From positions 32,001 through 96,000 of IMG/VR virus record IMGVR_UViG_3300022843_000001: a stretch of 64,000 bases of DNA; one strand, given 5' to 3'. Origin of the DNA: a virus. The notes under the pieces are model-generated. The model saw only the letters and a list, made by a program, of their open reading frames with translations, was not told where the DNA came from and ran no database searches. This document shows, piece after piece, positions 8,225 to 18,808 of the stretch. The translations under genes were made by a program, and so were the position numbers. The number at the start of each line of letters is the position of its first letter. Position 1 is the first letter of the stretch.

Positions 8225-9412
8225 TTAACCCTTTACACAAAGCACTTGTTTAATTTCATGTACAATCTCTACCAAATCGGCCTGAGCTGCCATTACATCA
8301 TCGATAGGTTTATACGCACTTGGAGTCTCGTCTATAATACCTTCGTCTATTCTACACTCCACACCACGAACTGCTTCTTCGTGTTGCTGCATAGTTACTA
8401 ATTTCTTCGCTTGGGTTCTGGACATAACCCGACCGGCGCCATGACTACAACTGTGGAAAGATTCCTTGTTTCCCAAGCCTTTAACTATGAATGATCTCTG
8501 TCCCATGCTACTTGGAATGATACCATATTGCCCTTTCTTAGCAGAAACCGCACCCTTTCGAGTAACCCACACATTTTCGTTGTAATGGTTTTCTTTCTGT
8601 ACATAGTTATGATGACAGTCAACAGTCAACTCATCTACCGTAAAAGGTTGTGTATGTTTTTCAAGCACTTCTAAAACATTTTTCATCATCAAAGCACGAT
8701 TCATCTTCGCGAATTCTTGTGCCCAGTCAACGGCTTCGATATATTGATCGAAGTAGGTCGAGTTTTCTGGTAAATATGCCAAGTCCTCGTCTGGCAAAGA
8801 AATAAAATACTTCTCCATTTCCAACTTTGCTTTCTCAATAAAGTATCTGCCAATAGCATTACCCACACCACGACTACCTGAATGTAGCATTACCCACACC
8901 GAATTGTCTGCTTTCTCGATACACACTTCGATGAAATGATTTCCACCACCCAAGGTGCCTAGATGAGCAATATTGTTTGTCTTCTCGACAGGGGCAAATT
9001 CACGCAAATTATCAAAGCCTGAACTTAAATGTTTATTCCAAGTATCGATAACTTCCTTGGGTAATTTCTGGACGTTATGTTTCCCTTGTCCTACAGGAAT
9101 CACCGCTTCAATGTCTAATCTCATCGATTTTAGGTTAAAAGGCAAGTCAGACGCAGTTAAAGACGTTTTAACGGCTTGCATGCCGCAGCCAAGGTCAACG
9201 CCAACTGCAGACGGGATAATCGCTTTTTTGGTGGCCAGAACTGTTCCTATAGCGCAACCTTTACCTAAGTGGGCATCAGGCATAGACGCAATCCATTTGT
9301 GTATGAATGGCATATCAGCAAGGTTCATTAATTGTTCTTTTGTGTTTTCCGCAAAATCAACACCATCACACCAAGCCTTTACTACATGGCCGCGGCCAGT
9401 TAAAACTTTCAT
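8225..9412 (-). CDS. rtcB: RNA 3'-phosphate/5'-OH ligase RtcB
   Basis: PDAH.GKGC.IG, GVD.GCG, GTLGGGNHFIE, HSGSRG.G, HHNY, RKGA, SCSHGAGR, DE.P.AYK. Confidence 0.95.
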   Translation of the reverse strand: MKVLTGRGHVVKAWCDGVDFAENTKEQLMNLADMPFIHKWIASMPDAHLGKGCAIGTVLATKKAIIPSAVGVDLGCGMQAVKTSLTASDLPFNLKSMRLDIEAVIPVGQGKHNVQKLPKEVIDTWNKHLSSGFDNLREFAPVEKTNNIAHLGTLGGGNHFIEVCIEKADNSVWVMLHSGSRGVGNAIGRYFIEKAKLEMEKYFISLPDEDLAYLPENSTYFDQYIEAVDWAQEFAKMNRALMMKNVLEVLEKHTQPFTVDELTVDCHHNYVQKENHYNENVWVTRKGAVSAKKGQYGIIPSSMGQRSFIVKGLGNKESFHSCSHGAGRVMSRTQAKKLVTMQQHEEAVRGVECRIDEGIIDETPSAYKPIDDVMAAQADLVEIVHEIKQVLCVKG

Positions 9413-10131: not shown

Positions 10132-10204
10132 TGGCGCTCCCGATAGGACTCGAACCTATAAATTCCCAGCTTCGTAGGCCGAGTTGCATCCAGTTGCCGA
10201 GAGC
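10132..10204 (-). tRNA. tRNA-Arg(ACG), shortened D-arm
   Basis: CTACGAA loop, GTTCGAGTC, acceptor GCTCTCG/CGGGAGC, CCA. Confidence 0.75.
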
Positions 10205-10390: not shown

Positions 10391-10480
10391 TGGCGGAAAG
10401 ATGAGGAGTCGAACCCCTAACGCTACTAACGTCACCACGGTATTCAACACCGTTTGCCGGCCTACCCAGCGGATCAATCC
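10391..10480 (-). tRNA. tRNA-Ser(TGA)
   Basis: ACGGT-GTTGAAT-ACCGT, long variable arm, G73, CCA. Confidence 0.85.
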
Positions 10481-10490
10481 ATAATTTAAA

Positions 10491-10801: not shown

Positions 10802-10870
10802 TGGTGGGCCGAGAGGGTCACGATCCCTCTCTCTCCAAATTATGAGTTTGTTGCTTTCCCAGTTAAGCTG
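10802..10870 (-). pseudogene. tRNA(CAT) lacking a matching 5' acceptor strand, fused to upstream tRNA-like element
   Basis: D, anticodon (CTCATAA) and T arms and CCA present; the 5' strand expected to pair with TCGGCCC is replaced by the 3' end of the next element. Confidence 0.55.
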
Positions 10871-11033: not shown

Positions 11034-11123
11034 TGGAGGAAGACGCTGAAATTGAATCAGACACACATTTCTGGTGCGATTTGTTTAGCAAACAATCCTA
11101 GTCACCAGACTAGATCATCTTCC
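11034..11123 (-). tRNA. tRNA-Ser(GCT)
   Basis: TTGCTAA loop, long variable arm, acceptor GGAAGAT/GTCTTCC, CCA. Confidence 0.8.
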
Positions 11124-11359: not shown

Positions 11360-11457
11360 AAATTTGGTGGACCTTTTAAGAAGGTAGCCGAACCTTTATT
11401 CTATCGCGTGTTCCATATTACACCACATGCCGGACTCGAACCGGATCTCTAAGAATT

Positions 11458-11543
11458 TGGTGGTAGTGGAAGGATTCGAACCCTCAATGACTAGCATACC
11501 TGCGGGTTACAGCCGCGTACCCTTCCTAATGGGTGTCACTACC
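11458..11543 (-). tRNA. tRNA-Tyr(GTA)
   Basis: GCGG-CTGTAAC-CCGC, long variable arm, CCA. Confidence 0.9.
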
Positions 11544-12077
11544 TTTGTTTCTTTTCAATGTTCTAGTTGCATTGGTCACCGTTGCGGCACAACTAGAACT
11601 ACAATATTTGTTCTTTCGTTTTTTATAAGATATAGCATCATGACAATATTCACATATCTTAGGAGATTCTTTATATATAGCTTGAGTCTTATAATGTCGG
11701 GCATTAGCTTTTTCTGATGCCCCATTTTCATTAGCTATGCGCATTGCCTTTTGATTTTTAAGTTTTCTCAATTTCTCATTAGAGTTGATATAGTCCCATC
11801 CACCAGAACCACCTAATTTTAGGTTATAGGTATTAGATTCAGCAATGAAATCAAGATTAACAATTTCAGATTCCTTGTTAAACATTTCCTCTGGGTTGTC
11901 ATAAACGAATAAGATTTCTTTTGTGAATTTGTCTAATCCATGTTTGTCCTGAGCGTATTTTAAGTATTTTCCAGAACCCATATAATTGTCGTTCAAATTT
12001 TTGGTCTTATGTGTTCCAATATAGAACTTGCCATTGATTTGATTTGAAATCTTATAAACAGTGTATTTTATTTCCAT
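11526..12077 (-). mobile_element. GIY-YIG (Seg-like) homing endonuclease inside tRNA array
   Basis: [21 protein letters not shown]...YMGSG, YNLKLGG, C-terminal CEYC...YCSSSC; late promoter TATAAATA at 12083-12090; 3' end overlaps tRNA-Tyr. Confidence 0.85.
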
Positions 12078-12305: not shown

Positions 12306-12377
12306 TGGTAGCGGAAAGAGGACTTGAACCTCTGCTTCACAGGTTATGAGCCTGGAATGCAACCGTTGCGTTCCGCG
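12306..12377 (-). tRNA. tRNA-Met(CAT), initiator-like
   Basis: CTCATAA loop, unpaired C1:U72, CGCGG start, short D-arm, CCA. Confidence 0.75.
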
Positions 12378-12593: not shown

Positions 12594-12602
12594 TTAATTT
12601 AA

Positions 12603-12781
12603 AATATTCTGTCAGGATGGTTGGACTCGAACCATCCATCTAAAGCATTTAGTCAGGACGGCTGGATTCGAACCAGCGTCTCCGCGTTCCAAACGCGGTA
12701 CTAAACCAAGCTCAGCTACGCCCGGACTAAATGCTCTATAAACGTGACTTACCAAGCTAACCTACACCCTGACACAATATT
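12603..12781 (-). ncRNA. Nested tRNA: tRNA-Pro(TGG) (12653-12725) inserted in the anticodon arm of an outer tRNA-Pro-like shell
   Basis: Inner cloverleaf CCGCG-TTTGGAA-CGCGG; 14-bp connector; outer acceptor TGTCAGGGTG/CATCCTGACA, own D-loop AGCTTGGT and T-loop TTCGAGT. Confidence 0.8.
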
Positions 12782-12788
12782 CTAAATT

Positions 12789-12948: not shown

Positions 12949-13103
12949 TGGCATTCCCGATAGGACTCGAACCCTGAACTTGACTTTAGAAGAATCGTGT
13001 GATTTCCAGTTTTACCATACACGCATTATTTGTTATCATGTAATATACACGTTACCTTATATCGACTTATTGCAACGTGCCTATCCAATTAGACTACGGG
13101 AAC
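12949..13103 (-). tRNA. tRNA-Arg(TCT) with ~80-nt insertion containing a second D-arm
   Basis: Acceptor GTTCCCG/CGGGAAT 155 nt apart; D-arm GTCT-AATTGGAT-AGGC; anticodon GATT-CTTCTAA-AGTC; T-loop TTCGAGT; CCA. Confidence 0.6.
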
Positions 13104-16102: not shown

Positions 16103-16122
16103 ATAATTCTTTTAATATATTT

Positions 16123-16200
16123 TGGGGTGTAATCTGGGTTTCGAACCCAACCCTCATGAGTCACAGTCATGCATGCTTCCAATTACACCTATCACACCCC
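16123..16200 (-). tRNA. tRNA-His(GTG)
   Basis: CATGA-CTGTGAC-TCATG, G-1, CCA. Confidence 0.9.
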
Positions 16201-16218
16201 AAAATATATTCTACCCAT

Positions 16219-18539: not shown

Positions 18540-18808
18540 TGCGATACACCACCTTGTCTTTCTTCGCCATGTTTGATTTCCCACATATTCAAGTTTCTTG
18601 TCAGATAATCAAAAAACAAGTCGCTTTTAGTAACACTCCAAGCTACACATTCGTCTTTCATCACAAAGATAGTATCTTCCTTAGGACTATCATCATCATC
18701 ATCATCCTGGGCTACATATATAGCGTTGATACCCCTTGACATTTTTCCATGTACAACCTCGAACATATGTAGCATTTTTTCTTCAATTGTTAAATCTTGT
18801 TTATTCAT
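18536..18808 (-). CDS. Hypothetical protein
   Basis: ORF track, coupled to ligase stop. Confidence 0.55.
   Translation of the reverse strand: MNKQDLTIEEKMLHMFEVVHGKMSRGINAIYVAQDDDDDDSPKEDTIFVMKDECVAWSVTKSDLFFDYLTRNLNMWEIKHGEERQGGVSQ

Follow-up and report, generated by a model that had tools for sequence, protein, structure and literature searches.

Group I introns occur in the anticodon loops of bacterial and phage tRNA genes; they contain a ribozyme core (P3-P8) and are usually longer than 200 nt. In Nanoarchaeum equitans, the two halves of split tRNAs are held together by a 12- to 14-bp helix at the anticodon position. Archaeal splicing of this kind involves a bulge-helix-bulge motif, in which two 3-nt bulges with a 4-bp helix between them mark the exon-intron junctions. 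Long helices that enclose a structured RNA are also familiar from bacterial 16S and 23S rRNA, whose leader-trailer processing stems are cut by RNase III, and tRNA genes without an encoded CCA are known from phage T4, in which the precursor of tRNA-Pro and tRNA-Ser is matured by RNase BN/Z, the CCA-adding enzyme, and RNase P. The closest paper that we found is that of Devoto and coworkers on the Lak megaphages, which describes "enigmatic" tRNA introns, one of which "itself may encode a tRNA" (Devoto et al., 2019; PMC6784885). In our literature search, nested tRNAs were not found beyond that paper, and no report was found of leader-trailer stalks on bacterial or phage tRNAs.

We analyzed a 64,000-nt window of viral DNA that corresponds to bases 32001 to 96000 of a viral record that is 198,785 bp long and has direct repeats at its termini; its source is a large T4-like phage. 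On the minus strand, at positions 12596 to 12788 of the window, a complete tRNA-Pro(UGG) gene lies within a second, tRNA-Pro-like shell, and the inner gene occupies the place expected for the anticodon arm of the outer gene. This is the insertion place of the group I introns, but the insert is 99 nt long and has no ribozyme core. The N. equitans halves come from separate genes, and their splicing involves a bulge-helix-bulge, an endonuclease of the archaeal type, and an anticodon loop that is restored; the locus described here has none of these features. In common with the rRNA processing stems, the flanks of a structured RNA pair into a long enclosing helix; unlike those stems, the helix at this locus is flush with the acceptor stem and is only a putative substrate of RNase III. 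The likeness to T4 is that of a T4-like phage tRNA-Pro that has no encoded CCA and needs 3' trimming and a CCA-adding enzyme from the host, whereas the T4 transcript is a tandem dimeric precursor that is not known to have a leader-trailer stalk or nesting. Like the Lak introns (PMC6784885), the insert does not belong to group I, but the Lak outer genes are predicted to be normal tRNAs once the intron is removed, whereas the outer gene described here has no anticodon arm, and the two partners are the same isoacceptor, belong to one stalked, CCA-less family, and are joined by a 13-bp helix.

Architecture of the nested tRNA-Pro genes

The inner tRNA was called by ARAGORN as tRNA-Pro(tgg) at 12652-12725 (-) and, taken from C1 to A73 (12653-12725), scored 54.6 bits with Rfam RF00005 against a cut-off of 29. 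It has the attributes of a canonical tRNA, with a cloverleaf above the gathering threshold, a 7-nt anticodon loop, and U33, and contains one mismatch, C2xU71. Its acceptor stem is prolonged by a stalk of 13 bp (12 Watson-Crick and 1 G-U) formed by a 13-nt 5' arm (12726-12738) and a 3' arm (12641-12653), the first base of which is the inner A73, followed by C74; the first pair of the stalk consequently joins U-1 to the discriminator base A73, and the second joins G-2 to C74. The 5' part of the outer shell (12739-12771), as read from the sequence and from the ARAGORN drawing of the excised construct, comprises the acceptor 5' strand beginning with C1 at 12771, U8-A9, the D arm, A26, and a 6-nt linker, and the 3' part (12612-12640), placed by sequence, ARAGORN drawing, and alignment, comprises a 4-nt variable region, the T arm, the acceptor 3' strand, and A73 at 12612. 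All seven pairs of the outer acceptor stem are formed (one of them G-U; C1-G72, followed by A73), as are all four of the D stem (two G-U), and the AGCTTGG D loop is identical to that of the inner tRNA; the T stem is paired at four of five positions, with AxA at 50-64, and closes a TTCGAGT loop. Both elements that form an elbow, the D-loop GG and the T-loop motif, are present. The shell has neither an anticodon nor the 3' strand of the anticodon stem and, measured against a canonical tRNA, it possesses acceptor, D, and T arms and no anticodon stem-loop, even after removal of the insert. ARAGORN in intron mode returned only a spurious chimera from the nest.

The flanks of the outer gene also pair. 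A leader strand at 12772-12788 (positions -1 to -17) faces a trailer strand at 12596-12612 (A73 to position 89), and 16 of the 17 positions are paired (15 Watson-Crick, 1 G-U, and 1 GxG) in a layout of 3 bp, one mismatch, and 13 bp. The leader strand occupies the entire spacer behind the CCA of tRNA-Phe, the trailer strand stops 2 nt short of tRNA-Asp, and with the outer flanks paired the whole unit becomes a rod. The predicted minimum free energy was -81 kcal/mol for a 179-nt stretch (z = -8.3; none of 200 shuffles was as good) and -89.2 kcal/mol for a 211-nt stretch. Neither a sigma-70-like promoter nor a terminator was found at the nest. CCA is absent from both Pro units and is encoded by all 16 of the other tRNAs that ARAGORN called in the window, and the inner gene is the only tRNA-Pro called in the whole 198,785-bp genome. 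An earlier note, made from the letters of the window, had proposed a complete tRNA-Pro inside a Pro-like shell, the lack of CCA in both units, and the solitary status of the Pro gene in the window, and on all of these points ARAGORN, Rfam, pairing, and folding bear it out; it had also described a 14-bp helix as the continuation of the inner acceptor stem, and the continuation is real, but the helix has 13 bp, the count of 14 having included C1:G72.

An assembly artefact that fused two tRNA-Pro paralogues would produce a similar picture, and repeats carry a general risk of such errors; nothing beyond that risk speaks for it. A GIY-YIG-like protein encoded 0.5 kb downstream of the nest, present with identical sequence on 19 contigs, was used to fetch further loci, and the nest proved to be covered by five independent assemblies from ENA and Logan, derived from different samples and assemblers, which were 100% identical to the window over 3 to 5.7 kb around the nest. 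In addition, the inner and outer genes have no long exact stretch in common. Misassembly is refuted for practical purposes, and we attach a negligible probability to it.

A family of stalked tRNA units without encoded CCA

The more general result of the analysis is that the two genes fall within a small and apparently undescribed family, the members of which we term stalked units: they have no encoded CCA, they have the pairs U-1:A73 and G-2:C74, and a leader-trailer helix of 11 to 15 bp is flush with the acceptor stem. Judged by these features, the inner and outer genes are both members. A73-C74 followed by something other than the remainder of a CCA end is found in the inner and outer genes, in the contigs L198 and L200/L201, and in two genes of the locus L072, one a tRNA-Met and the other designated X. 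A flush helix of at least 11 bp that starts with U-1:A73 and G-2:C74 is likewise present, with 13 uninterrupted bp in the inner gene and, in the outer gene, 3 bp followed by one mismatch and a further 13 bp. The earlier note had treated the helix as being peculiar to the nest; it is instead the hallmark of this family and also occurs in genes that are not nested.

When leader-trailer pairing was measured on 1093 tRNAs of other viral loci, it reached at least 8 bp in only two, both of which lie in L072 and proved to be relatives. L072 is an 11-kb tRNA cluster that has a GIY-YIG gene and several tRNA homologies in common with the window. The arms of its CCA-less tRNA-Met are homologous to those of the inner gene, with 15 of 17 positions identical in the 5' arm (4 upstream bases included) and 11 of 13 in the 3' arm, where there is one compensatory change from C-G to U-A. 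A scan of IMG/VR for the inner arms yielded 27 stretches, and only that of L072 has a tRNA between the arms; the other 26 contain no tRNA and fit the number expected by chance. L072 X (1141-1240) is a stalked, CCA-less RNA that is derived from tRNA-Pro and has a 6-nt anticodon loop and the acceptor end of the outer shell. When it is compared with the intact L200 gene, its acceptor stem, anticodon stem, and stalk all show double compensatory changes, which implies that a family member devoid of an anticodon can be kept; from its sequence, X looks like a selected, non-decoding tRNA mimic.

A search pattern built from the 3' ends common to L072 X and the outer gene, and therefore not chosen for the stalk, led to L198, L200, and L201. 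L198 is a 230-kb contig with an intact, un-nested tRNA-Pro(TGG) that lacks CCA, carries a 15-bp stalk, and has the same acceptor 5' strand and the same trailer start as the outer shell. L200 and L201, contigs of 234 kb and 331 kb, carry an intact, un-nested tRNA-Pro(TGG) without CCA on a 13-bp stalk. At 3701-3865 of L200 there are two tandem tRNA-Pro(TGG) genes, the first stalked and CCA-less and the second ordinary, and stalked and ordinary tRNA-Pro genes can thus coexist. In the clusters in which the family occurs, the stalked genes are exactly the CCA-less ones, and all others encode CCA and extend their acceptor stems by no more than 2 bp. Queries with the L198 and L200 units in blastn gave no stalked homologue from cultured phages.

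An alignment of six units over the 21-pair helix formed by stalk and acceptor stem was used to examine covariation. In this helix, 94.4% of the cells are paired, compared with 72% in shuffles (none of 500 reached the observed value) and 35 to 50% when the partner strand was slid, and 16 of the 21 pairs change on both sides. G-U pairs number 10 within the stalks and A-C pairs none. This count is biased, since G-U was accepted as pairing when the ends of the helices were set, and there is one A-C immediately outside the helix of L072 X. The covariation and the G-U/A-C pattern point to selection at the RNA level.

The relationship between the inner and outer genes is also evident from alignment. 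The L198 and L200/L201 relatives align end to end with the inner unit in MAFFT, stalk included. Of 32 positions compared in the 5' part of the outer shell (12739-12771), 26 agree with the inner tRNA and 25 with the intact L198 tRNA-Pro, and the 61 nt that the outer gene retains show 80% identity with the inner tRNA and 77% with L198. The inner and outer genes differ at 20% of the aligned positions, with three double compensatory changes in stems (6-67, 11-24, and 13-22), from which it follows that both were working tRNAs for most of their divergence. On this comparison, the outer gene was also a tRNA-Pro(UGG), one that cannot now decode.

Origin of the nest and maturation of the inner tRNA

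The nest could be read as a tRNA-shaped intron that RNase P and RNase Z excise, after which the outer halves would be religated to a functional tRNA by RtcB or an Rnl-type ligase. The insertion position, in the anticodon arm, is the appropriate one; the phage encodes RtcB at 8225-9412 (-), 3.2 kb downstream of the nest, as well as two PF09414 ligase-like genes elsewhere in the genome; and there is the precedent of the Lak tRNA introns that "may encode a tRNA" (PMC6784885). We applied ARAGORN to each of 432 combinations of deletion end points for the inner unit and obtained no canonical outer tRNA, only weak models with two anticodon-stem mismatches and A33, so the outer gene is not a spliced, intron-bearing tRNA. 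A tRNA-shaped intron would lie in the loop of an otherwise complete tRNA and its excision would restore a 7-nt loop; at this locus any excision leaves no 3' strand of the anticodon stem, no 7-nt loop, and no U33, and exact excision puts the ends at a helix terminus rather than at a nick. Other nested tRNAs in viral contigs, found by a pattern for two T loops too close together, served as controls. Among 57 matches to a complete tRNA closely trailed by an orphan T arm, the usual case was a tRNA followed by a 3' fragment only, and just three were convincing nests: an Ile tRNA in the anticodon loop of a CAT tRNA (L014, 4994-5145), a Phe tRNA in that of an Arg(CCT) tRNA (L041, 4971-5121), and an Arg(CCT) tRNA in a long-helix shell (L074, 6612-6777). 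The same excision restored a normal outer tRNA in L014 and L041, where the intron reading works, and a long one in L074. In contrast to nests of the intron type, the outer gene described here cannot be restored, its partner is the same isoacceptor of the same family, and stalks join the two. The ends produced by RNase P, RNase Z, and RNase III carry a 5'-phosphate and a 3'-OH, whereas the substrate of RtcB is a 3'-phosphate or cyclic phosphate, which it joins to a 5'-OH, and with the inner tRNA removed there is no nick or anticodon loop left to reseal; the suggestion in the earlier note that the RNA is a substrate for the nearby RtcB does not withstand these considerations. The other described routes fare no better, in that the 99-nt insert gave no group I hit in Rfam even at an E-value of 10 and no match other than tRNA, and the helix runs from stalk into acceptor stem without the bulges of a bulge-helix-bulge. 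Excision and religation of a tRNA-shaped intron are already largely refuted by the anatomy, and we regard this reading as highly improbable.

On balance, we favor an origin at the DNA level as the probable explanation: a stalked unit was inserted into the anticodon loop of a resident unit, which it broke and replaced, so that the inner gene is now the product and the shell is probably a relic. One stalked unit would have entered the anticodon-loop region of the resident, at a cost to the latter of about ten bases (about 9 to 10 nt) and of its function, and the newcomer would have taken over as the working tRNA-Pro of the phage. The setting would be a tRNA cluster that carries a homing-endonuclease-like gene, the candidate being a weak GIY-YIG (SegE-like) open reading frame at 11526-12077 with two homologues in L072. 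Against such a history stands the fact that neither an empty site nor a second nest emerged from the searches that were run. No homologous nest was found by blastn against INPHARED, in three pattern scans of IMG/VR, in one metagenome scan, or in the nearest relatives by RtcB (L125-L148 and L154-L164). The pattern scan of genome contigs gave one match, and the metagenome scan gave only an unrelated repeat and the L152/L153 lineage, in which a CCA-less tRNA-Pro is followed by only the 3' fragment of a second tRNA-Pro (further contigs of the lineage were identical), which shows that tRNA-Pro genes do persist as partial relics. The nearest relative by RtcB, L154 (84% identity), has two ordinary tandem tRNA-Pro(TGG) genes with CCA at 18595-18754. 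At the inner junctions there is no target-site duplication, and the loss of about 9 to 10 nt of the outer gene means that the resident was not cleanly split. Both the insertion and its direction are inferred, given the lack of an empty site or second nest, the ordinary tandem pair of L154, and the absence of a target-site duplication. The outer gene is remarkably intact for a relic, pairing being kept at 15 of 16 stem positions and 16 of 17 stalk positions. Given also that it differs from the inner gene at 20% of aligned positions with three double compensatory stem changes, either the nest is recent or the shell is still under selection.

The second of these alternatives leads to the proposal that the two-elbow RNA is itself selected, the shell being a non-decoding scaffold that recruits tRNA-processing enzymes to the inner tRNA or, after release, a mimic or decoy. 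The near-intact acceptor, D, and T arms and 17-position stalk of the outer gene, the retention of the D-loop GG and the T-loop motif that form an elbow, and the compensatory changes of L072 X, which suggest that non-decoding members can be maintained, are all compatible with it; the AxA mismatch in the outer T stem, the irregular junction to the inner stalk, and the failure of IMG/VR, the metagenome scan, INPHARED, and the nearest relatives to furnish a second nest are not what it would lead one to expect, and the five identical assemblies carry no evolutionary information. We consider selection of the two-elbow RNA possible, with perhaps half the weight of the insertion and relic explanation. 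Less probable still, and in our estimation doubtful, is the view that the stalked unit is a small mobile DNA element with a passenger tRNA, the 13-bp arms serving as terminal inverted repeats and tRNA anticodon loops as targets, and that the nest is a self-insertion within a mobile family and not a single accident of recombination. Homologous arms do flank different tRNAs (Pro in the window and Met in L072), the unit sits in a gene of its own family, the arms have the inverted-repeat arrangement of a MITE-like element, and an 8-nt direct repeat, accounting for 2 of the 18 genomic copies of that word, brackets the whole nest. That repeat, however, contains a palindrome and belongs to the outer stalk; the arm sequences have no other copy in the 199-kb genome and only one real match in IMG/VR, the others being chance matches without a tRNA; the duplication and the several copies that would complete a MITE-like signature are lacking; and the arms vary across the family with compensation and G-U pairs, which argues for constraint on the RNA.

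On the insertion and relic explanation, the transcript is predicted to fold to a rod with two tRNA elbows, from which host enzymes would release the inner tRNA-Pro by opening or cutting the stalk and trimming the 3' end, the host CCA-adding enzyme would add CCA, and the outer shell would probably be a by-product left as two paired pieces. Neither a CCA-adding enzyme nor RNase III was found in the phage genome, and maturation must therefore rely upon enzymes of the host. The functional readings of the earlier note are mostly unsupported; the exception is the proposed processing to release tRNA-Pro, which is consistent with the inner gene being intact and the only tRNA-Pro of the phage. Stalk and acceptor stem add up to a 20-bp helix, and A73-C74 is present in every stalked Pro or Met unit; on these grounds we put forward, by inference only, a staggered cut through both strands where the acceptor stem has its base, followed by completion of CCA. 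A bolder and, we believe, unlikely extension is that stalked, CCA-less tRNAs form a distinct maturation class, in which the 13-bp helix with its conserved U-1:A73 and G-2:C74 would direct a staggered, double-strand-specific cut of the RNase III type, so that the mature 5' end would arise with no need for RNase P and the host CCA-adding enzyme would complete a 3' end that stops at A73-C74; the units would also move as cassettes into the anticodon loops of their own family and replace the resident, and shells such as the outer gene and L072 X would be kept as tRNA mimics. Were the stalk a processing signal, these phages would mature some of their tRNAs by a route not described for bacteria, and gene flanks, rather than an encoded CCA, would define tRNA ends. 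The nest would indicate that stalked units can land inside one another, and as a naturally occurring RNA with a rigid helix between two complete tRNA elbows it provides a substrate with which to study site choice by RNase P, RNase Z, RNase III, and the CCA-adding enzyme.

Other tRNA-like genes in the cluster

Phage tRNA clusters also appear to hold tRNA-derived RNAs that no longer decode, and the locus carries a warning for annotation, as the outer shell and several tRNA-like genes of the cluster escape both ARAGORN and Rfam. A tRNA-like gene at 12949-13103 (-) of the window, called by neither, has an acceptor stem, a D arm, a weak T arm, and CCA, with about 78 extra nucleotides after the D arm. 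Five further CCA-ended, tRNA-like genes fall below the thresholds (12310-12376, 11038-11123, 10394-10481, 10813-10869, and 10134-10204, all on the minus strand); one has a CAT anticodon and scores 28.6 bits, and one scores 45 bits with a tRNA-Sec model. The cluster consequently holds more tRNA-like genes than the 17 called. An orphan T arm with an acceptor 3' strand lies at 11432-11457 (-), directly after tRNA-Tyr and beside the GIY-YIG-like open reading frame.

Two candidates were discarded in the course of the searches. A resemblance between the 5' half of the outer gene and sequence upstream of the L152 tRNA-Pro was dropped when that stretch was recognized as the end of an open reading frame, and an 18-bp inverted repeat at 107127-107275 of the genome, the arms of which are slightly similar to those of the inner stalk, has no tRNA inside. 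The tRNA-His gene of the window (16113-16211, -) has a perfect 13-bp leader-trailer helix that includes G-1:C73 and an encoded CCA, and no such helix accompanies tRNA-His in the related clusters L154 and L072. Finally, a conserved RNA of about 94 nt recurs in five viral contigs (L018, L021, L071, L079, and L097); its acceptor end is like that of a tRNA, and it has two T-loop-like hairpins.
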